Source: a virus
Taxonomy: Duplodnaviria; Heunggongvirae; Uroviricota; Caudoviricetes
IMG/VR virus record: IMGVR_UViG_3300042154_003418
Location: 40,218 to 104,217 of that record
Strand: one strand, 5' to 3'
Length of the DNA stretch: 64,000 nucleotides
The position numbers and the translations under genes are program-made. This document shows, in pieces, positions 1,264 through 47,252 of this stretch. Each line of letters starts with the position of its first letter. Positions within the stretch are counted from its first letter, which is position 1. The notes below the pieces were generated by a model. That model searched no databases, was not told the DNA's origin, and was given only the letters and a program-made list of their open reading frames with translations.

Positions 1264-4200
1264 ATGACAACATCAGCGGTGCTATCGCCAGGGATTAAAT
1301 CCCTGCACCTTAGCTTAGATACTCCTGTTGACCTCGTTACCGGAAAGGTCCGTCGTGACCTTTCTGGTATTCGTGTTTGGTATTCTACACAAAGCGGATT
1401 CAATCCCAATAATAGTGAAGGAACACAAGCTTTCAATGGTCTTAGTTCAGATATCACCATTAGCAACCTGCTAGAAAGTACTCAGTACTTTGTTAGATAT
1501 GCCTTTATTAGTGCTATAGACCCTACTGTTTATACAATCTCACCACAGCTATCAGCACTAACTTACGACGAAAACGTCAGCGTTTACGGAAACCTAACTA
1601 ATCCAAGTAGTATAATTCAAACAAATAATGCTGGAACTAATGGTGATTATACTGTAGCAGGCGGCGTATTTAAAGTATACAAGTACAGTACTGAAGTTAC
1701 CGGTATGGGGGTTGAGTATGCGCTAGAAAGTGGTACTATAGTAGGTGGCCTGGCAGTAAGCATTAATCCAAATACTGGAGCATACGCTGTAACTGGCCTA
1801 ACTGATGACTATGGTTCAGTTATCTTGTCTGCTACATATGACGGCGTTACTATTCAAACCACACTGTCAGTAATTAAAGCTCGTGCTGGTGTGGATGGTA
1901 CTAATGCGCAGCTATTAACAATTAATGCTGAAGGCACGGCCTTTGTGTTTAAAGATGCAGCAGCTAGCACCAGCGACACTGCCAAGCTAACGCTAATTGC
2001 TAACCTTAAAAATGTAACAGGCACAGTAACTTGGACAGCAACCGCTTTTAATGTTAATAATGTAAGTTTAGGTCCTATTACTTTTACCCAAACAGGTAAC
2101 GCAATTGATATTAGTGCCGCACAATTTAATCCACCCGCTTATGCTAACACAGTTGCTTATGTTACGGTAACTGCTAGTCGTGTACTGCTATCAGACACAG
2201 TTACACTATATCGTATTAACAACGGCACAGATCAGATAATTCTTGAGCTTACCAACGAGTCGCATACTATTCCTGCTTATTATGACGGAACTACCGTACC
2301 TGCTAGCTATATTGGTAGTGGTACAGAAATACGTGTAAAACAGGGCAATCAATATTTAACGGTTGATAACACAGTACCATACGCGCCAGGAACTTGGACA
2401 GTTACTGCTGCCAACGGTGTAAATATTACACCAGACACAACACCTGGTATTTTTAGCAGCTACATTAACTATGACACTCATAGTAACATGACAGCTGATC
2501 GTGCATACATTGACTATACTGTAACAGGTACCAGCTTAACTGGTGCGCCGTTTTCAATCTCACGTCGTCAAAGCTTTGCAAAGTCAGTGGCAGGTGAGCC
2601 AGGTGCAACAGCTACATTGGTTAGATTAACTACTACTGAGCTGGTATTTATTAAGTTCAAAGATGGTACCTACAGCAGCAATAGTGTTACCATATATGCC
2701 AATACACAAAATATTCCGACACCAGTGTTTGTGTGGAATGATGGTATTAATCCACCAGTTACAAAAGACAGTACTACAGATCCGGCAGCAAGTCAGTTTG
2801 TATTTAACCGTCCAGCGGAGCTGGGTGTTTACACAATCACAGTAAGCGTAACGGACAAAACTAACACCGCACTTGGTACAGCTGTGGATTCTATGTCTAT
2901 TGCTTTTATTGAAGAAGGCAGCGACGCTTACACATTTCTTTTCAAAGATCCTGTGGCTCAACTAAGTGCCAATAGTCTTGGAATCGTCGAAGGTGGAGTT
3001 ACCAGTGTTGTAAACCACATTATTGGTGCACAAGGTATTGCATTGTTAGTGCCTGGTGTGGACATTATATACACCGTGGATAGCACAGAAAATTGTACTG
3101 CTACATTGGGTAGTGTAACTGGAACGTGGAATCAGGAATTTACTGTTAGTGGGGCATTTTTTACTAATGCCAGCATTACTTCAGCTAGCGTAACCATCAA
3201 GTGTCAAGTTCCTGGTGGAATTTACTACTTGATGAAAACTTCGTACTCAAAAGTACGCAAAGGCGACACAGGTGCTGCCGGAGCTAATGCGGTTTTTGCA
3301 GACTTGGTTAGTGAAGCTGATGTGGTTACTGCACTAACGGATGGTACAGGATATACACTACCAACAGGCAACGCACTGCAGCTATACAGTGGTGGTAATA
3401 TTGTAACTGCTGGAGTTACCTATGGCGGCACTACAACAAAAAATGGTTTAACTTTAACCATCAACACTGCGGGTACAATTACGCTAAGCGGTGCGGCTTG
3501 GACCAGCAATCAAGAAACTTTTAACGTAACTGCAACACTTGGTGGTGTAGCATATACTGCTGCCTACACAATTGCAAAGTCACGTGCAGGTAGTGATGCT
3601 GTGTTTGTTGACCTGTTAAGCGAAGCCGAGGTAGTTAACAGCGCCGCAGACGGTACTGGGTATACTCTACCAACTGGCAACAGCATGCGCTTATTCAAAG
3701 GCGGGGTGCAGGTAACTACTGGGGTTGTATACAGCGGCGGTACTGTAAAAAATGGGTTAACACTGTCTATTGCGGGTAGCACTGGAGCAATCACACTAAG
3801 TGGTGCGGCTTGGACAAGCGACAGGGAAACTTTTACACTAACAGCTACTTTTGATAGCGTAGCGTATACCTATACCTACAAGATTACCAAGGCCAAGCAA
3901 GGTGTGCAAGGTGTAGCAGGTTCTACAGGTGCGGCAACAGCAACCGTAGCATTATATGCCAAGAATACTAGCAGCAGTACGCCACCAGCAGCATTTTCGG
4001 GGACTTTTACTTATACATTTAGTACTAGTCTGCTAAGTGGTGGCACATTAAACGGATGGGCTCAAACAGCTCCTGGTGTAGCAAACGGCGAGTATTTGTG
4101 GGTTCGTTATGCGGTAGCTAGCAGTGCAACTGCCACAGATACTATTGCCAGCACAGAGTTTAGCGGTGCTGTTGTAAGCTCAGTTGGCGGAGTTAATGGA

Positions 4201-5937
4201 GTTGCTGGAACTAACACTGCTACCATAGAACTGTTTGCTAAAAACACAAGCGCCAGCACAGCTCCCGCAGCATTCAGTGGAACTTTTACTTATACATTTA
4301 GTAACGCAACACTAACTGGCGGTACACTAAACGGCTGGAGTCGAACTGCTCCGGCTATTACCAATGGCGAATATTTATGGGCTCGTTACGCGGTTGCTGC
4401 TAGTAATACAGCAACTGACGCTGTTGACGCCAGTGAGTTTAGTGCAGCTGTTGTTCGAAGTATTGGGGGTACAAATGGTGCGCCTGGTACAAACGGTACA
4501 AACGGTACAAATGGTACTAATGGTGTAAACGCAGTAAAGTCCACAAGCGGGTATATTTATTATGCATTTGCTGGCGGAAGTCCAGGCACTCCAAGCGCCA
4601 GCAGCTTTAACTTTAGTACTGGTGCATTTACTGGTTTAAGCGGTGGTTGGGGTACTACAGTAAATATGACCGGTAATGGATCGTATTGGGCAGCACGTTA
4701 TATTGTAACAGAATCAGCTTTTGGCAGCAATACTGGAACCCCTAGTTTTAGCGCAGCGTTTAATCACCAAAACTTTGAAGGACTGGTGACTTTTACTAAC
4801 TTAAATGGTTATGCTACTCAAACATATGCCGGTCAAGTAGCAAATACTGCAGTAGCTAATGCTGCAGGTAATTACGCAACAAATAACCTATCCAACGTCA
4901 CAACAATTGATGGCGGAAAAATTAGTACAGGCACACTAAGCGTTGGATCAATACAAAGCAGTACTACTAATTCATCATACGGCGTAAATTGGGGTATTAA
5001 TACCTTTGCATTTGGAACCGGATCAGTTTTAGCAGGTATATCAACTGTAGGTTATTTTAAAACAACTGACTCAGGCACACTTGGCTTAGGGGTGCTATCT
5101 TCAAATAACGTTGCTTTTGCGGCATCAACTGTATGGTCAAGTTGGGCAGGTGGTTTTGGCAATCGTTGGGGCGTTGGTATAGATGACATTGCCGCAGGCA
5201 ATAACCGTACACTGGCAGAATTCTGTTCTAATACTGTAGCTGGTCGGTTCTTTCACCGAGATACAAACCATACCACAACCGTAGCTTCTAGTACTCATGC
5301 AATTAATGCAAGCGGACCAGTAAATATAAATGGTTCGCTAACAGTTAATGGTGTTGCTATTAATACTAATGGTGGCACTGGTTACGGCCCAGGATCTAGC
5401 CCTGTATTTGATGCTATTAGTGCTAGCACTATCACCACTAGCAGCAGCATAACTTCTAGTGGTAGGATATTTAGTCAAAGTATTAACGTTGGTGGTGCCA
5501 GTGGTTATACAGGAGATATTTATACTGGAGATATTGCTTGTGGCGGTAATTTTAGAGCCTTGGGCGGTGCGCTGCTCAATGGCAATGTTTATGCTAATTT
5601 CTTTTATAGTCAGGGAACTTACATTGGAAGTTCACGACGTCTTAAAGATAGTATCTTGCCGATTGATATCGGACTAGACTTTATTTTATCGCTAGAACCT
5701 GTTAAATATACGCTAAAATCTACTCAAGACCCTAAGGTGGGGTTTATTGCTGAAGATTTTCCAGACACAAGGTTTGTGCACCAAGGATTCATTGATCCAG
5801 CAGATGAATCCAAAGGCAAACAGATTAATGCTATTGATTACTCGTCTATGGTAGCGCCACTGGTAAAAGCAGTACAAGAATTAAACGCAAAAATCACTCA
5901 ACTAACACTCGAATTAAACGCGCTAAAAAATACTTAA
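1264..5937 (+). CDS. large L-shaped tail-fibre-like protein with C-terminal S74 intramolecular-chaperone autoproteolysis domain
   Basis: The ORF track gives 1237..5937. ATG at 1264 is preceded by aaagag, so 1264 is the likelier start. Protein is about 1560 aa and Thr/Gly/Ala/Ser-rich. Collagen-like GTNGTNGTNGTNGVN segment. Internal tandem domain duplications. C-terminus GSSRRLKDSILPIDIGLDFILSLEPVKY...LVKAVQELNAKITQL matches the endosialidase / T5 pb1-type chaperone-of-endosialidase module (SxxRxK cleavage motif). Confidence 0.8.
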   Translation: MTTSAVLSPGIKSLHLSLDTPVDLVTGKVRRDLSGIRVWYSTQSGFNPNNSEGTQAFNGLSSDITISNLLESTQYFVRYAFISAIDPTVYTISPQLSALTYDENVSVYGNLTNPSSIIQTNNAGTNGDYTVAGGVFKVYKYSTEVTGMGVEYALESGTIVGGLAVSINPNTGAYAVTGLTDDYGSVILSATYDGVTIQTTLSVIKARAGVDGTNAQLLTINAEGTAFVFKDAAASTSDTAKLTLIANLKNVTGTVTWTATAFNVNNVSLGPITFTQTGNAIDISAAQFNPPAYANTVAYVTVTASRVLLSDTVTLYRINNGTDQIILELTNESHTIPAYYDGTTVPASYIGSGTEIRVKQGNQYLTVDNTVPYAPGTWTVTAANGVNITPDTTPGIFSSYINYDTHSNMTADRAYIDYTVTGTSLTGAPFSISRRQSFAKSVAGEPGATATLVRLTTTELVFIKFKDGTYSSNSVTIYANTQNIPTPVFVWNDGINPPVTKDSTTDPAASQFVFNRPAELGVYTITVSVTDKTNTALGTAVDSMSIAFIEEGSDAYTFLFKDPVAQLSANSLGIVEGGVTSVVNHIIGAQGIALLVPGVDIIYTVDSTENCTATLGSVTGTWNQEFTVSGAFFTNASITSASVTIKCQVPGGIYYLMKTSYSKVRKGDTGAAGANAVFADLVSEADVVTALTDGTGYTLPTGNALQLYSGGNIVTAGVTYGGTTTKNGLTLTINTAGTITLSGAAWTSNQETFNVTATLGGVAYTAAYTIAKSRAGSDAVFVDLLSEAEVVNSAADGTGYTLPTGNSMRLFKGGVQVTTGVVYSGGTVKNGLTLSIAGSTGAITLSGAAWTSDRETFTLTATFDSVAYTYTYKITKAKQGVQGVAGSTGAATATVALYAKNTSSSTPPAAFSGTFTYTFSTSLLSGGTLNGWAQTAPGVANGEYLWVRYAVASSATATDTIASTEFSGAVVSSVGGVNGVAGTNTATIELFAKNTSASTAPAAFSGTFTYTFSNATLTGGTLNGWSRTAPAITNGEYLWARYAVAASNTATDAVDASEFSAAVVRSIGGTNGAPGTNGTNGTNGTNGVNAVKSTSGYIYYAFAGGSPGTPSASSFNFSTGAFTGLSGGWGTTVNMTGNGSYWAARYIVTESAFGSNTGTPSFSAAFNHQNFEGLVTFTNLNGYATQTYAGQVANTAVANAAGNYATNNLSNVTTIDGGKISTGTLSVGSIQSSTTNSSYGVNWGINTFAFGTGSVLAGISTVGYFKTTDSGTLGLGVLSSNNVAFAASTVWSSWAGGFGNRWGVGIDDIAAGNNRTLAEFCSNTVAGRFFHRDTNHTTTVASSTHAINASGPVNINGSLTVNGVAINTNGGTGYGPGSSPVFDAISASTITTSSSITSSGRIFSQSINVGGASGYTGDIYTGDIACGGNFRALGGALLNGNVYANFFYSQGTYIGSSRRLKDSILPIDIGLDFILSLEPVKYTLKSTQDPKVGFIAEDFPDTRFVHQGFIDPADESKGKQINAIDYSSMVAPLVKAVQELNAKITQLTLELNALKNT

Positions 5938-40059: not shown

Positions 40060-40983
40060 TTATTTGTTTACATACTCTGCAATCGACCTAACATTTTCAC
40101 GATCTAAATCGCCAGGGTCTGTGCCGTCTGGTAAGTCGATGATTTCAACAACAAAGCCCTCGGCTTCAAGCACTGGCTTAAGAGCTTTTGCTGCACTGTT
40201 ACCTGCCTCGTCCCCGTCAAAAAGCAAGTAGATGTGCGTGATGCCTTGGGCTCGGAATGGTAACAGTTTTTGTTTTGTGTCATTTTGAAGAGTTTTAGTA
40301 CCAAAAGCGCATACTGCGTTTTCGCAGCCGTTGTCGTATAAGTTAAGCATATCAAATATGCCTTCCACCAATACCATGCTAGAATAACCACTGGGTAGGT
40401 GTGCTGGAAACAGCGGCATTGTTACACCTTGCGGGTAGTTAACATATCTGGGATTGCCAGCACTCATTGTGTGACGGCCAACAAATACCACTGTTTTTTG
40501 CGTAATATCACGAATGGGAAATACAATACGATCTTGTAGCTTTTCTACTTGATGGGTATAAAAAGCGCCAAAGTGCTTGAGTGTTGCTGGGCTAATGCCA
40601 CGAAACATTTTAGTCCAAGGCGTGTAACCTTGTGGCAACTCTAGCTCACGTCCAAATGATTTTAGTGTGGCCAGTTTTTCTTTGAGTGCTGCAATCTTTA
40701 CTGGAACCGGATTGGTAAAAACTCCGTAAAACTTGAAAAGGTTGGTTTTAAACCCACAAGCAAAACAGTGCGCAACTCCACTAACACGATCAACGCGAAA
40801 GCTAGGGTTTGAGTCAGGATGTTCTGGGTTCAAGCACTTGATCAAGTAGTCGCGGCCGCTGGCTTGATAGCCTAGGCCATTCTTTTGAATTAGTTCTAGT
40901 ACTGGGTCGCTCATATTAGTCTTGTATTTTGTAGAAGTCTTTGCAAGCCAACCAACCATTCTGAAAAGCCAGTAATTGTGCAT
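40060..40983 (-). CDS. DNA primase (CHC2 zinc finger + TOPRIM)
   Basis: CLNPEHPDSNPSFRVDRVSGVAHCFACG zinc finger. TOPRIM-like VLVEGIFD...DGDEAG. Confidence 0.8.
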   Translation of the reverse strand: MHNYWLFRMVGWLAKTSTKYKTNMSDPVLELIQKNGLGYQASGRDYLIKCLNPEHPDSNPSFRVDRVSGVAHCFACGFKTNLFKFYGVFTNPVPVKIAALKEKLATLKSFGRELELPQGYTPWTKMFRGISPATLKHFGAFYTHQVEKLQDRIVFPIRDITQKTVVFVGRHTMSAGNPRYVNYPQGVTMPLFPAHLPSGYSSMVLVEGIFDMLNLYDNGCENAVCAFGTKTLQNDTKQKLLPFRAQGITHIYLLFDGDEAGNSAAKALKPVLEAEGFVVEIIDLPDGTDPGDLDRENVRSIAEYVNK

Positions 40984-41119
40984 GTGCTGCTGTTGGTTGT
41001 GGTTTGTCAGGCACTATACGGTTATGGTACTTAACCCAAAAGTCCGCACTGATCATAGCCACAACTTCTTCGCCTAGTACTTCTAATATTTCGTCTGGTG
41101 TGTACATTATGCATTCCAA
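40916..41119 (-). CDS. small hypothetical protein
   Basis: 67-aa ORF bridging the primase and the helicase. Confidence 0.3.
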   Translation of the reverse strand: MECIMYTPDEILEVLGEEVVAMISADFWVKYHNRIVPDKPQPTAAHAQLLAFQNGWLACKDFYKIQD

Positions 41120-42496: not shown

Positions 42497-42796
42497 TTAC
42501 CCTACTTTCGCTTCATTGTCAATAATAACTTGATCTACGATTTCGGTAACTTTGTACATTATCTGATCTCGTAATTTTTTAATATCTTGCTGATACGTTG
42601 CACCACTGTCATACAACAAACTCAATTGCTCGTGAGTTAGTAGCTGTTGTAGCCCAAAATAAATGTGGTCATAAGCCATTGTAGATTCTGGAGTGATTTC
42701 TATCTGAGCAGCTTTACCGTAATTTTTAACTGCAAAAGAAACTACTTCCTCTACTGTTAAAGATTCATTGTCGTGGTATGTGATTGTAACACGCAT
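42497..42796 (-). CDS. hypothetical protein
   Basis: 99-aa ORF. Confidence 0.4.
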   Translation of the reverse strand: MRVTITYHDNESLTVEEVVSFAVKNYGKAAQIEITPESTMAYDHIYFGLQQLLTHEQLSLLYDSGATYQQDIKKLRDQIMYKVTEIVDQVIIDNEAKVG

Positions 42797-42866: not shown

Positions 42867-43616
42867 TTAAGCTGCTGCTTTAGCTTCGGCTTTGGCTTTT
42901 TTAGCTGCACCATCATAGTCAGCAACTTTGATACCACGGCGAGTCAGCAATGTACGCAGACCACGTTCTGTTTTGTCAACAGCAGCTGCAATTTCTGCAA
43001 CTGTCATGGTGTGAATACGATCACCAAGGGCAACCACCGGATCAACGGATTCTTTGGCATGAGATTCGCGCTGTGCTGGAATCTTGCTAATCTGACCTTT
43101 GCGTGTCAAGCTCAGGGCTTTACCACGAACACTGGCAACAGTCTTGTTGAGCTTGGCAGCGATATCTTCAATAAAGTTACCGGCATCAGCCATTTTCACA
43201 AAAGTGGCTTCTTCGGCTTCGGTATAAGTACGAGCCACTTCCACTTTTTCAGCTGGCTTTACACTGCCAGTTAGTTCCAGGGCCAGCAATTTGCCTTGGA
43301 TTTGTTTTGCAGTGAACTTGCCGTCAGCAAAGTTTTCAGCAATTTCTTTGTAAGTCAAGTTACCTGCATTAGCACTCACGAAATCGGCAAGATCAGCGCC
43401 TTCGTCGGGTGTAAATGCACTGGTTTTTTCTTTTGCAAGACTAGCAACTTCACGGTCAAGTTGACGCAGTTTAGATGCAATACTGCGAGTAGTTTTACCC
43501 AGTTGTTCAGCAGCACGCTCAACGCTATCAACGCTAACGGGGCTTTCGCTTCCAACGATTTGCATCAGTTGGTCAACAGCTTCGTCAGACCAGTTTTTAG
43601 TAGCTTTTTCAGTCAT
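42867..43616 (-). CDS. repeat-containing putative DNA-binding protein
   Basis: 249 aa with three about 60-aa internal repeats (..KLRQL.., ..QGKLLALEL.., ..RGKALSLTRKG.., ..LRTLLTRRG..) and an Ala/Lys tail. Confidence 0.4.
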   Translation of the reverse strand: MTEKATKNWSDEAVDQLMQIVGSESPVSVDSVERAAEQLGKTTRSIASKLRQLDREVASLAKEKTSAFTPDEGADLADFVSANAGNLTYKEIAENFADGKFTAKQIQGKLLALELTGSVKPAEKVEVARTYTEAEEATFVKMADAGNFIEDIAAKLNKTVASVRGKALSLTRKGQISKIPAQRESHAKESVDPVVALGDRIHTMTVAEIAAAVDKTERGLRTLLTRRGIKVADYDGAAKKAKAEAKAAA

Positions 43617-44376
43617 TTGTATTTTCTTTCAAGAAAGTATTTAGGTTTGTTATAATTGGGATGCCAAGTGATTCGGCTTTTTTGCGTTTTGTACTAGCCT
43701 TATCTTCTTCATCAACCAAATAGTCAGTGGTTTTAGTCACAGACTCTACTGCTCTGTATCCGGCAGCTTCCAGTGCTTGATAAGCATCTGCTTTGGTTTT
43801 GTAAGAAGATAGTTTTCCAGTGATACAAACAGTTTTAGAATTGTTGTTACTGATTGTATTGGAATTTCTATTAGACTTAAAAGAGAACGGCAAAAACTCT
43901 CGTAAGTCAGGGAAATCTGTTTGTAACCAACCAACTAGGTTTTCGGTTACTTTGTCGCCTAAACCGGCTTGTTTGCAGGTTTCGTATGTGATTTGATCAA
44001 TATGCTCAACCACTTCACAAATCTTTTTTGATGCTGTGCTGCCAACTAGGGTAATCGAGAAACTTGCTAATACTGTGGCTAAGTCAACAGCTTTGGCACG
44101 TTCAATTTCATCAAGTAGTTTTGCGGCAGTTTTTTCACTGCCCAAGGCTTCTGTTACAGCGTCTAGATCAAGATAGAACAGCTCAGTTAAATCTTGTAAG
44201 TCAAGCTTTTCTACTGTCTTTGGGCCCATGCCTTTGATGCCAAGGGTCTTACAAAAGTGCTCTAGTTTTTTACCCAGCTGTGCACCGCAAGCTGTGTTGC
44301 GGCAAAAGAGTTGGTCATTGACCAATTCAAGTGTGTAGCTACAGCAGGGGCAAACGGTTGGGATTTCGATCTTCAT
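43609..44376 (-). CDS. NAD-dependent DNA ligase C-terminal fragment (Zn finger - HhH - BRCT)
   Basis: CPCCSYTLELVNDQLFCRNTAC zinc finger. HhH GIKGMGPKTVEKL. BRCT-like VCITGKL...LGIPIIT. Confidence 0.7.
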   Translation of the reverse strand: MKIEIPTVCPCCSYTLELVNDQLFCRNTACGAQLGKKLEHFCKTLGIKGMGPKTVEKLDLQDLTELFYLDLDAVTEALGSEKTAAKLLDEIERAKAVDLATVLASFSITLVGSTASKKICEVVEHIDQITYETCKQAGLGDKVTENLVGWLQTDFPDLREFLPFSFKSNRNSNTISNNNSKTVCITGKLSSYKTKADAYQALEAAGYRAVESVTKTTDYLVDEEDKASTKRKKAESLGIPIITNLNTFLKENTND

Positions 44377-44401
44377 AGTGGTTTATTGCTTTGTAGACTA
44401 T

Positions 44402-44430
44402 ATTATAACTGATTGGGACGGCTTTGACAA
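44402..44430 (-). promoter_or_regulatory. T5-type early promoter in front of the ligase C-fragment
   Basis: On the - strand: cttgtcaaagccgtcccaatcagttataatatag. Confidence 0.5.
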
Positions 44431-44447
44431 GTGTAAATTTTTAGTGC

Positions 44448-45128
44448 TTAAGCTAATGTCCAGCCTTTGTGATGGTTTCTAGTACCTTTTAAAACTTCCG
44501 TGAGTTTTGGTTGTAGTAGTCCGTGTTCTTTGGCAAAATTTGTAACGTGAGTAACTTCATAGACTTTGCCTTCTGGTGATTTTATGGAAGGGTATTGCTT
44601 GCCGTAATAGTAAGGTAACTCTTGTTTTATTCGTATCAGCTCTGCATATTCGTTAGGACATACTTCTGATAGCCAGCAGTGGCTTTCTAAGGCAGCTATG
44701 TGCCTTATTGTATATATAGATATACCTGTTATTTCCTCTATTTCACGCTTACTTAATGTAGGAGCTTTCTGTATTAATAATCGTAATACTGAAATATACT
44801 GCTCATTAGTATACTTTGCAGTACCTGATCTTTCTCCAAACATAATGGGATTACCAGACTCACTAAGAGTATTAAATCCGTTATTTACGGAGTCAAATAT
44901 TTCTATAGCTTCTTTTTCAGTACTATTTAGAGCAGCTATGTTAGCTTCTACCAATAGCTCTAGATTAGGCATTCCGTAGGTATTAAATGCTTGCTGTAAT
45001 TTAGGTGCAGCTGCATTTCTATTAAAAGCACTTTTGTGCTTAATAAATCTATCCTCTATATCCAAGGACTGACCTATATAAACCTTATTTGTATAATTAA
45101 ATCTTAACACATAAATTCCAGTAGTCAT
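44448..45128 (-). CDS. GIY-YIG homing endonuclease
   Basis: N-terminus TGIYVLRFNYTNKVYIGQSLDIEDRFIKH carries the GIY...YIG motif with the conserved R and E. C-terminal DNA-binding region. AT-rich codon usage distinct from its neighbours. Confidence 0.8.
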   Translation of the reverse strand: MTTGIYVLRFNYTNKVYIGQSLDIEDRFIKHKSAFNRNAAAPKLQQAFNTYGMPNLELLVEANIAALNSTEKEAIEIFDSVNNGFNTLSESGNPIMFGERSGTAKYTNEQYISVLRLLIQKAPTLSKREIEEITGISIYTIRHIAALESHCWLSEVCPNEYAELIRIKQELPYYYGKQYPSIKSPEGKVYEVTHVTNFAKEHGLLQPKLTEVLKGTRNHHKGWTLA

Positions 45129-45187
45129 ATTTACCTCACTTGCTTATATTATAGCACATGAGGTATAATTTGTCCAACCAAAATTTT

Positions 45188-46138
45188 TTATGCATCAACT
45201 TTATGTAAAATACACGGAATAATCATGCCTGCGCGAATAACGGCCACGGTGTCGCCAATACGCAAGTCTAGCATTTGAATAAAACCAGGATTATTAAGAG
45301 TAGCACGACTGACGAGAGCATCGCCAATAAGCACAGGTTCAAGAATTGCCACTGGGCTAACTTTGCCACTCTTGCCGACTTGCCACTCAACTGCAACAAG
45401 TTTGGTTTCAACGTGGGCTGCTCGTTCTTTTTTAGCATACGCACCGCGCGGATGCTTGGCCGTATACCCCATCTCGTAGAACTGACTATTGTTATTGACT
45501 CGGAAGACAACACCATCGCACGGGAATATTTTGTCGAGATCTGGTTCATTGATTACTCCAAAACCTGCCAGTTGCAGTGCTGCCAAGTCTGCGTTAAATG
45601 TTTCGTGTAGGCTAGGCTGAACGCCATAGGCAAAGAAACTCAGTGCTCGTGATTGAAATTCCGACACATCTTTTAAGTTAAGTGCGCCTGCTGCATAGTT
45701 GCGAGCATTTTCAATATTGAGTGGAGCCACAATCTCGCCAGTGATCTGGTAAACGCCTGGCCACGGCACAGTTTGTGGCACAATAGGATTGCCCAAGAAC
45801 TTGTCAGTTACAATCTGACCTTCTACACCATCCCCACGGGTAAGAACTCGAACAAGATTACCGTCAACATAAAGTAAGCTAAGAGCTGCCCCATCAAGCT
45901 TAATGCTTGTAGCAACCGATCTAATACCTTGGAGTGGTTGGGTACCTTCATCTTCGTAATACTTTTGCAGTGAATACATTTGATACAAGTGACGCTCAGT
46001 TTTTGAGTTCTGCTTAGCGCCCACAGCATTATAGCCTACTGACGCAGCAAGCGCATCAAACTGTGCGTCAGTGATAAATGGGCTACCTGCGTAATACGCG
46101 GCTGAAGCTGAGTCGAGATATTGTGTGATTTTGTTCAT
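45188..46138 (-). CDS. NAD-dependent DNA ligase N-terminal fragment (adenylation + OB domains)
   Basis: AAYYAGSPFITDAQFDAL N-terminal motif. KLDG adenylation lysine motif. OB-fold segment VEWQVGKSGKVSPVAILEPVLIGDALVSRATLNN...IGDTV. Confidence 0.75.
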   Translation of the reverse strand: MNKITQYLDSASAAYYAGSPFITDAQFDALAASVGYNAVGAKQNSKTERHLYQMYSLQKYYEDEGTQPLQGIRSVATSIKLDGAALSLLYVDGNLVRVLTRGDGVEGQIVTDKFLGNPIVPQTVPWPGVYQITGEIVAPLNIENARNYAAGALNLKDVSEFQSRALSFFAYGVQPSLHETFNADLAALQLAGFGVINEPDLDKIFPCDGVVFRVNNNSQFYEMGYTAKHPRGAYAKKERAAHVETKLVAVEWQVGKSGKVSPVAILEPVLIGDALVSRATLNNPGFIQMLDLRIGDTVAVIRAGMIIPCILHKVDA

Positions 46139-46318
46139 AGCAACTATTATAGCAGTTTAGGGTCGCGGCTTCAAGTGTATTTTTAAAAGTGCTTGCCAAA
46201 TGCACAGTAAATAGCAAACCACTTATTAGTGGGATTGCCTTCGTGTGCAGGGTTATAGTGCCAAGCAATATAAGGCATATTTCTACTAATTTGAAAATGC
46301 CTACAACCAAAACGTATA

Positions 46319-46618
46319 TTAAAGAGTAGGTTGCTCATGCTTTTCCTTGATTTTGTTGTAGTAGTGCGTGATAATTTCTTCACCTTCGGCACGGGCACAG
46401 ATATCCAACATACCATCAATAATGCCGCGCATGTTTTCCAGCGAGGCTGGAATGCTTACACCTTCACGGCTAGGAACCCACTCACCTTCATACGACAAAA
46501 AGTACTTGCGTAGTTGGATGTAAGTGGTTTCGCGAAAGTCGTTTACCACTAGTCGAACCTGAAAACCTTTGTCCATGTTTTCTTCGATTAGTTTTTCGTA
46601 TTGTATATTAGCGTCCAT
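46319..46618 (-). CDS. hypothetical protein
   Basis: 99-aa ORF. Confidence 0.35.
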   Translation of the reverse strand: MDANIQYEKLIEENMDKGFQVRLVVNDFRETTYIQLRKYFLSYEGEWVPSREGVSIPASLENMRGIIDGMLDICARAEGEEIITHYYNKIKEKHEQPTL

Positions 46619-46620
46619 AA

Positions 46621-46866
46621 TTATTCCGGTTTTGGCGCCTGTATAATTTTCTGCAGGCTTTCGCTATCTGCTGGCCAAGCCCAGTGCACAGCTGTCCAAT
46701 CAGTAATACAATTATTTTCTGAGATTTGCGACTCCCGACCTACTGCACGCATGGTACTAGACCAATAGTCCCAGTAGGTATCGAGTATTGCACGATCTGA
46801 GTAAATCTGGTATACTGCTTCGCTGGAAGTTTCTGATGCGGGTTCGCAATAAATCCAGTATCTCAT
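46621..46866 (-). CDS. hypothetical protein
   Basis: 81-aa ORF. Confidence 0.35.
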   Translation of the reverse strand: MRYWIYCEPASETSSEAVYQIYSDRAILDTYWDYWSSTMRAVGRESQISENNCITDWTAVHWAWPADSESLQKIIQAPKPE

Positions 46867-47252
46867 TTCTTGGCCTTTTCTACAGCTTTTTCAATGCCTT
46901 CGTCAATATAGCCGTCTAGTTTTTGATTAATAATGGTAAGTACTTTGGAACCCATTTGCTCCACCTTAGGGTCTTGAGCAATTTTTTGTGCAGCATAAGC
47001 ACCTACCATAGTGTATGCTGTCTTCTGACTGGGAAGAATCACTACTAAGAATACTGCCGCTAGACCAATACCAAACCACATTTTGACTCGTTTCCAAGCC
47101 CAGAGCTTGTTCTTATTATCGTCGCCATACTGATCGCCCATATAGAGGAATAAGCCTAATACAATCAGTGCAGATAGTCCAACTAAGGCACCAAGAATGC
47201 CACGGATACCTGATAATGTATTAATTGCGTAAACAAGTAGTGCTAAATCCAT
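46863..47252 (-). CDS. small integral membrane protein, possible NfeD-like partner of the SPFH protein
   Basis: 2-3 transmembrane helices. Coupled downstream of the SPFH gene. Confidence 0.4.
   Translation of the reverse strand: MDLALLVYAINTLSGIRGILGALVGLSALIVLGLFLYMGDQYGDDNKNKLWAWKRVKMWFGIGLAAVFLVVILPSQKTAYTMVGAYAAQKIAQDPKVEQMGSKVLTIINQKLDGYIDEGIEKAVEKAKK

Follow-up and report, generated by a model that had tools for sequence, protein, structure and literature searches.

A 64,000-nucleotide stretch of DNA from a Caudoviricetes virus (IMG/VR record IMGVR_UViG_3300042154_003418, positions 40,218 to 104,217; hereafter the window) carries a predicted NAD+-dependent DNA ligase as two genes, ligA and ligB, with the gene of a putative free-standing GIY-YIG homing endonuclease between them. 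Did this homing endonuclease gene (HEG) break the ligase in two, or did it settle in a ligase that was already divided? A first-pass annotation of the window, made from the sequence, described a two-subunit ligase that the endonuclease had split. In this study, we examine the history of the locus through filled and empty sites in related phages, the anatomy of the inserted cassette, and the domain structure of the two ligase pieces. We consider it very probable that an ancestral two-gene ligase later received an intronless-homing cassette in the spacer behind the ligA stop codon.

Filled and empty sites in related phages

A scan of IMG/VR yielded 65 related loci, with ligA identities to the window of 48-99%. 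ligA and ligB are separate genes in all 65, and in about 56 of these the spacer between them measures 65-97 nt and holds no open reading frame (ORF). Two loci, L007 and L055, match the window at ~97% identity on either flank (96.3-97.6% and 96.0-97.4%, respectively, by segment). In both, the ligA stop codon is followed by 71 nt and then by the ligB ATG; this spacer carries the same conserved ligB promoter, and the difference to the window at this place is exactly the cassette. Alignment of the filled site with these two empty ones places the cassette at 44454..45187 on the minus strand (−), ~734 nt that together with a duplicated GCWTAA make an insert of ~740 nt. It lies directly 3' of the ligA stop codon, with GCWTAA at both of its ends. 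The site is empty in each of the 22 closest relatives (89-99% ligA identity). Only L033, L044, and L047-49 have a homologue of the window endonuclease in the gap (68-77% identity), apart from a distant one in Serratia phage Kamaji (25%). The split forms all end 6-8 residues past the IIP of motif VI, and their breaks fall within ~2 residues of one another.

Cultured phages extend this picture. Megablast of the 3-kb region against them gave no match, whereas protein searches with either ligase piece reach more than 900 T5-like (Demerecviridae) phages, with identities of 38-47%. The gene order of the window is that of T5 (regulator, ligA, ligB, D5-like factor, small ORF, DnaB-type helicase), and the window appears to come from a distant T5-like phage of the Demerecviridae type. 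In T5, ligA (T5.116) and ligB (T5.117) are separated by a 202-nt gap that contains two annotated promoters, P-K28b and P-K28a, but no endonuclease. The ligase is likewise split, with no endonuclease in the gap, in Salmonella phage S124, Aeromonas phage TS3, Vibrio phage D239, Providencia phage PR1, Serratia phage Slocum, and Klebsiella phage Kpn24-P2. The first-pass annotation had mentioned a similar division in T5 and proposed that both the break and the type of HEG be compared with it; the split is indeed like that of T5, but the T5 gap, with its two promoters, offers no HEG for comparison.

The early promoter that the annotation had assigned to the C-terminal fragment was located at 44402..44430 (−) as TTGTCA-17-TATAAT (11/12), with AAAAATTT ahead of it, in a position equivalent to that of P-K28a. 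Of 54 distinct relatives, 53, including T5, have a TTGnnn-17-TATAAT element ~25 nt (range 9-30) upstream of the ligB ATG, and ligB appears to be driven by this conserved sigma-70-type promoter of its own. Since the empty sites are split and the ligB promoter is conserved, the division of the gene predates the cassette, and so, it appears, does the independent transcription of ligB. Downstream of the -10 hexamer and ahead of the ligB start codon lies a box, AAATTGATAA, that T5 (L006, 4500-4538) shares with most metagenomic relatives; it is replaced by CAAAGCAATAAAC in the window (44377-44401) and in the relatives closest to it.

Because every relative is split with or without an endonuclease, and because L007 and L055 are empty at 97% identity, the endonuclease is best read as a later selfish insertion into a pre-existing spacer and not as the cause of the split. 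The causal part of the annotation is therefore set aside. It had also looked to a contiguous ligA in related phages to define the insertion site; none was close, and the site was obtained from the empty split sites instead.

Fused ligases were found only at a distance. Among close relatives there was no contiguous ligA, and a search of 1.84 billion representative proteins ranked split forms of 304-340 aa at the top and returned compact LigA proteins in fused form, 555-586 aa long, at ≤48% identity. The fused ligases P0016, P0033, P0060, P0064, P0065, P0068, P0072-P0074, P0076, P0077, and P0080 are 39-48% identical to the window ligA and roughly as long as ligA and ligB together. One of them, P0016, reads ...IIPKIINVLSSGTGRIIAPTECPSC...; no IMG/VR locus was found for it, and among cultured phages its best matches are split T5-like ligases throughout. 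In a neighbor-joining tree the fused and split forms looked interleaved; after bootstrapping, no mixed clade had support of at least 60%.

It is scarcely credible, then, that this GIY-YIG gene itself split a contiguous ligA in the manner of Aeh1 nrdA/mobE. Such an origin would suit the placement of the endonuclease exactly between the halves, phage cases of HEG-created split genes are documented (PMC2988022), and fused compact LigA proteins exist in metagenomes. However, the HEG-less relatives are not contiguous: all of them, including the 97%-identical pair, are split at the same place with a promoter-bearing spacer, as are T5 and hundreds of cultured T5-like phages that are split without this gene, and none of the fused forms, at ≤48% identity, groups with the window's clade with bootstrap support. 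The locus thus corrects an attractive but wrong causal story, and neither annotation pipelines nor readers should infer causation from position.

The recoded 3' end of ligA

The ligA genes of the window and L007 differ by 29 mismatches, 12 of which are confined to 45191-45230, the last 40 nt, with 17 in the other ~950 nt aligned. The 12 mismatches hit nine of ten consecutive motif VI codons and are synonymous except for one change of E to M. The ligA 3'-end alleles read GCTGGTGAAATCATTCCTTGCATCTTGCAC... in L007 and GCAGGCATGATTATTCCGTGTATTTTACAT... in the window. Segments (43 nt) of such density make up 0.7% of the 8-kb comparison between the two, the sole other place being 42689-42776. Deviation from the GEIIPC consensus is found in 4/4 HEG+ alleles as against 3/43 HEG-less ones (Fisher p = 2e-4, a value that ignores phylogeny), and within the recoded tract the window shares GCAGGNATGATTATTCCG with the distant HEG+ loci L047-49 and not with its own near relatives.

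Two cultured phages provide an independent replicate. Kamaji (HEG+) and Slocum (HEG-) share 99.1% identity in ligB and in the downstream flank, whereas the last 43 nt of their ligA genes contain 12 mismatches; here, synonymous recoding affects six motif VI codons in a row (A-G-G-I-I-P). Since recoded tracts adjoin the insert in two independent filled/empty pairs, the likely target of the endonuclease is the 3' end of ligA, at the motif VI codons. In the window the corresponding tract comprises the last 14 ligA codons (45191..45232, −), including A-G-M-I-I-P of motif VI, and would be the co-conversion or immunity tract of an allele whose HEG-less counterparts carry the putative target.

These observations suggest the following course of homing. 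During co-infection, the endonuclease would cut HEG-less genomes in or near the ligA motif VI codons, ~5-45 nt upstream of the insertion point. Repair off the HEG+ genome would copy in the cassette together with the short recoded stretch of ligA, and this stretch would render the carrier immune to its own endonuclease. Filled and empty sites at ~97% identity, along with the cultured Kamaji/Slocum pair, thus constitute a natural experiment that predicts a specific target of ~40 nt over motif VI.

The recoded tract also bears on the direction of change. If the HEG were ancestral in the clade and had been precisely lost many times, the window would represent the old state; the divergence of the endonucleases among the HEG+ contigs (68-77% amino acid identity) does roughly follow that of their ligases, and the direct ligA-terminus repeats at the cassette ends could mediate clean excision. 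Yet the 22 closest relatives are empty and have consensus motif VI codons, and the sharing of GCAGGNATGATTATTCCG with L047-49 instead of near relatives is what would be expected had the tract been imported with the cassette. We regard repeated loss as quite improbable.

Several points nonetheless weigh against a recent gain of the cassette by homing into motif VI. The direction, gain and not loss, is an argument from parsimony, the 12-20 nt direct repeats that flank the cassette could permit precise loss, and the independent HEG+ alleles in the clade number only four. The comparison of the window with L007 is mosaic elsewhere too, with two further patches, one dense (42689-42776) and one smaller (44158-44176), such that a tract beside the cassette could be coincidence. 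The acidic position of motif VI varies in the wider family (G/D/E/S/M), and the HEG-less L065 also has M. Finally, both endonuclease domains score just under their Pfam gathering scores (GIY-YIG, 20.9 vs 22.6; NUMOD-like, 22.7 vs 27).

The patch at 42689-42776 (−) is the 5' part of a 99-aa ORF (42497-42796) and has ~27 mismatches to L007 in 60 nt. The smaller cluster lies within ligB (44158-44176, −), where 8 mismatches to L007 fall in 19 nt, ~200 nt into a near-identical gene, and may be a second conversion patch or a variable loop; we considered this ligB-side cluster as a possible second target.

The endonuclease and its cassette

The endonuclease gene (44448-45128, −), defined by ORF scan, Pfam, PHROG, and PDB comparisons, encodes 226 aa and ends with a stop codon inside a duplicated copy of the ligA terminus. 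The same construction is seen in L047, where the end of the endonuclease ORF, ...GTAGATGCTTAA|ATTTCCGG, copies that of ligA, ...GTGGACGCTTAA|ATTTTGG. The N-terminal domain of the window protein is an I-TevI-like GIY-YIG domain (PDB 1mk0, E 1e-4; PHROG homing-endonuclease families, E 5e-11 to 3e-8), and the C-terminus is I-HmuI/NUMOD-like and putatively DNA binding. The gene has a GC content of 31-35%, in contrast to 45-49% in ligA. The annotation's description of an AT-rich, 226-aa GIY-YIG endonuclease between the ligase pieces is thereby borne out, and by its domains the protein would be a free-standing, intergenic homing endonuclease of the same type as seg and I-TevI.

The catalytic positions (GIY, YIG, R, H, E, and N) are kept across the endonuclease homologues; the I-TevI row in this comparison is what we take to be its sequence. 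The ORFs are intact in four diverged lineages, and the gene is under purifying selection (dN/dS 0.07-0.16). Because of this constraint and the conserved catalytic positions, a functional endonuclease is apparently being maintained.

The cassette carries a promoter-like site of its own, TGGACA-17-TG-TATAAT (11/12; 45148..45176, −), which was found by promoter scan and is conserved in 4/4 HEG+ alleles. Folding prediction places an RNA hairpin over it (45132..45165, −), with the -10 hexamer in the loop and the right (3') arm paired with the endonuclease Shine-Dalgarno sequence, GAGG. The predicted free energy is -16.3 kcal/mol (z -4.4), none of 200 shuffled sequences was as stable, and the stem is retained in the other HEG+ alleles. 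Transcripts that read through from ligA would carry both arms of the hairpin and would mask the endonuclease ribosome-binding site (RBS), whereas the 5' arm would be absent from those initiated at the promoter of the cassette itself; endonuclease translation would probably be restricted to the latter. Control of the RBS by a hairpin with an embedded promoter has been described for I-TevI, segB, and Aeh1 mobE (PMC2988022), and by analogy we infer that the window hairpin serves to sequester the RBS. If so, the T4-style scheme of a promoter inside an RBS-sequestering hairpin would extend to a T5-like phage with a sigma-70-type promoter.

A weak tblastn match at 4696-4788 of the window was considered as a second endonuclease-like copy; the match falls within a 1566-aa tail-fibre-like ORF, and we took it as chance.

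Introns and inteins

The annotation had argued for two genes and against an intron or intein, and had named a cryptic group I intron core as the finding that would count against it. An Rfam search of positions 43000-47000 on both strands at E≤10 returned no intron family, group I and group II included, and a single chance miRNA match. In the 2owo and other PDB alignments neither ligase fragment has spare residues that could be intein halves, and the spacers of 65-97 nt are variable in length and do not preserve the frame. Because there is no Rfam intron family and no surplus at the broken ends, the arrangement is neither an intron nor an intein, as the annotation had maintained.

That the halves are joined after transcription or translation, through a group I or II intron, a split intein, or ribosomal bypassing, can be nearly dismissed. 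GIY-YIG genes are often intron-borne, to be sure, and the closest database matches of the N-terminal domain are annotated 'group I intron endonuclease'. Against joining stand not only the negative searches over 43000-47000 and the lack of extra intein residues, but also the ATG that each half possesses, the ligB promoter in 53/54 distinct relatives, the spacers that do not preserve frame, and a solved homologue deposited as two chains. Separate start codons for the two pieces had already been noted in the annotation.

The two ligase subunits

Both ligase genes were identified, at the coordinates of the annotation, by ORF scan, Pfam, PDB alignment, and PHROG comparison, and their products together supply the adenylation, OB, Zn, and BRCT modules of what appears to be an NAD+-dependent DNA ligase. 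The two-subunit form of this enzyme is already known, since the T5 genes are annotated, the A and B subunits make up separate PHROG families (the full-length phage profile is cut between positions 381 and 388), and a two-chain structure has been deposited. PDB entries 9hu3 and 9i5i contain two chains, one of 339 aa ('DNA ligase (NAD(+))') and one of 248 aa ('DNA ligase subunit B'); the latter is 100% identical to that of Providencia phage vB_PreS_PR1, and we assign the source phage by this sequence. A search of the literature on split-ligase biochemistry and on these two entries returned genome-annotation mentions only, with no describing paper. By analogy with the two-chain homologue, the ligA and ligB products presumably assemble non-covalently. 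Of broader interest is the reason for which T5-like phages have kept their NAD+ ligase in two subunits, a family-wide property for which structural entries exist.

The ligA gene (45188-46138, −) encodes 316 aa. Its product matches the Pfam families DNA_ligase_aden (PF01653, 86 bits) and DNA_ligase_OB (PF03120, 89 bits), both above gathering scores, and covers positions 1-315 of the 325-position profile phrog_3359. The KxDG motif is KLDG, with the lysine at K80, and motif VI is C-terminal and reads RAGMIIP. The adenylation domain and OB fold that the annotation had recognized in this product are thus present. Domain Ia binds NMN and gives ligases of this type their specificity for NAD+; the N-terminus of the ligA product, AAYYAGSPFITDAQFDAL, looks like a short form of it and can be aligned, from residue 4 on, with the PR1 chain 'DNA ligase (NAD(+))'.

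The ligB gene (43609-44376, −) encodes 255 aa, comprising a C4 zinc finger, a helix-hairpin-helix (HhH) region, and a BRCT domain. The product starts with MKIEIPTVCPCC, 8 residues ahead of the first zinc-finger cysteine; of its cysteines at 9, 11, 12, 25, and 30, those at 9, 12, 25, and 30 form the C4 finger. BRCT is recognized by Pfam (22.4 bits vs a cut-off of 21.3), and the protein covers positions 1-253 of the 256-position profile phrog_3498. It aligns with E. coli LigA (2owo) over 402-662 and with 1dgs over 400-660. The annotation's reading of this product as Zn, HhH, and BRCT holds for the zinc-finger start and the BRCT domain; the HhH region gave no Pfam match and is visible through the full-length alignments only.

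Alignment to E. coli LigA also fixes the break point. The ligA product runs to residue 390 of 2owo and ends ~3 residues past the equivalent of that position, and the ligB product begins at about 400, such that ~six residues of the OB-to-Zn linker are missing between them. Because one piece reaches 390 and the other starts at ~400-402, the break lies in the linker between the OB and Zn domains, where the annotation had put it.

Upstream of ligA, a promoter scan identified TTGAAG-17-TG-TATAAT (10/12) at 46146..46174 (−), a promoter-like site also present in L007 and L008. Between this promoter and the gene of a 99-aa transcriptional regulator, the window has ~150 nt (46183-46344, −) that are missing from the 97%-identical L007. 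This stretch alters the C-terminus of the regulator and holds a possible 31-aa ORF (MPYIAWHYNPAHEGNPTNKWFAIYCAFGKHF); elsewhere among the fetched loci it has just a 36-nt partial match, in L011.

Other occupants of the ligA-ligB gap

Klebsiella phage vB_Kpn24-P3 (L077) has in its ligA-ligB gap an unrelated nuclease (2459-3157) with a Zn-ribbon (treble-clef Zn finger) and a T5orf172 domain, which its sibling vB_Kpn24-P2 (L076) is without. The 8 nearest mismatches between the two lie within ~70 nt on the ligB side of the insert, and the ligA side has 1 mismatch in 2.4 kb. Vibrio phages have one or two small ORFs in the gap, and L056 has three, one of which encodes a DUF7736 protein. A 231-aa paralogue of the window endonuclease (42% identity) is found in L059 at 3842-4537, between a 99-aa ORF and the DnaB-type helicase gene; this small ORF is homologous to the one that bears the 42689-42776 patch in the window, and the paralogue lies just downstream of it. 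The ligA-ligB gap of that locus is empty (87 nt). The distribution of its members suggests that the endonuclease family is mobile.

That the gap has been colonized repeatedly, by the window's GIY-YIG family, by that of Kamaji at 25% identity, by the Kpn24-P3 nuclease, and by the small ORFs of the Vibrio phages and L056, lends some weight to a different origin of the split. An ancient HEG insertion at the base of the T5-like lineage could have made it, with the gap a landing pad ever since and the HEG lost from most lineages; breaks that all fall within ~2 residues agree with this. There is, however, no direct trace of the founding event, a stop/start mutation or a promoter insertion at the domain linker could equally give the split, and the phylogeny of fused and split forms offers no supported (at least 60%) mixed clade either way. 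We hold such an ancient insertion to be unlikely, though worth bearing in mind. The wider proposal is a doubtful conjecture: that the OB-Zn linker is a long-lived HEG landing pad, that an ancient insertion made all T5-like two-subunit ligases, and that unrelated nucleases re-invade through motif VI or zinc-finger codons. If true, selfish elements would have altered for good the quaternary structure of an enzyme essential for replication, and this throughout a virus family.

Elsewhere in the window, a 63-aa ORF (MYTPDEILEVLGEEVV...) at 40915-41104 (−) separates the DnaB-type helicase gene from the next one, joined by a TAATG overlap upstream and TAATATG downstream. It is missing from L007 and L055 and occurs at ~75% identity in L011, L012, and L021, as a variable accessory gene.

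Comparison with known systems

The ligases of T5 and PR1 are divided in the same way as that of the window, into Ia-NTase-OB (with Ia putative in the window) and Zn-HhH-BRCT, within the same order of regulator, ligA, ligB, D5, and DnaB helicase. They share with it a promoter in the gap before ligB and identities of 42-47% (A) and 38-42% (B). They differ in the gap, which is ~190-200 nt long and contains promoters, or a terminator and a promoter, and no endonuclease, whereas the gap in the window's clade is normally 65-97 nt.

Cultured T5-like pairs with filled and empty ligA-ligB gaps are known in Kamaji/Slocum and Kpn24-P3/P2. Kamaji resembles the window in its GIY-YIG gene, 25% identical over the full length, and in the same recoded motif VI tract; its gene, however, overlaps the ligA stop codon and is without a promoter of its own. 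Kpn24-P3 differs in that its nuclease (Zn-ribbon and T5orf172) is unrelated and its divergent tract lies on the ligB side.

With I-TevI and the T4 seg endonucleases, the window protein shares a GIY-YIG domain joined to a C-terminal DNA-binding module, an intergenic position between conserved genes, and a sporadic distribution, along with flanking co-conversion and translational control by a hairpin and promoter, as far as these can be deduced for the window. The inferred target, at most ~45 nt from the insertion point, is I-TevI-like, whereas the T4 seg endonucleases cut hundreds of base pairs away (PMC2988022). The promoter in the window also differs from the T4 case, being sigma-70-like and not a T4 late promoter.

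In Aeh1 nrdA-a/mobE/nrdA-b and T4 gene 39/mobA/gene 60, an endonuclease similarly stands between the halves of an enzyme that works as separate polypeptides, and mobE has an RBS-sequestering hairpin with an embedded promoter. These systems differ from the window in that their HEG-less relatives are contiguous, the insertion having made the split, and in that their endonucleases are HNH-type and not GIY-YIG. The closest published analogue is 43A/seg43(25)/43B of Aeromonas phage 25 (PMC2988022), in which a seg-type GIY-YIG gene lies between the halves of an essential replication gene already split in relatives. The gene in that case is for a DNA polymerase, and its hairpin leaves the RBS uncovered, whereas the predicted hairpin of the window covers it. 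Set beside these systems, the window locus is an ordinary free-standing HEG in a gene that had already been split.

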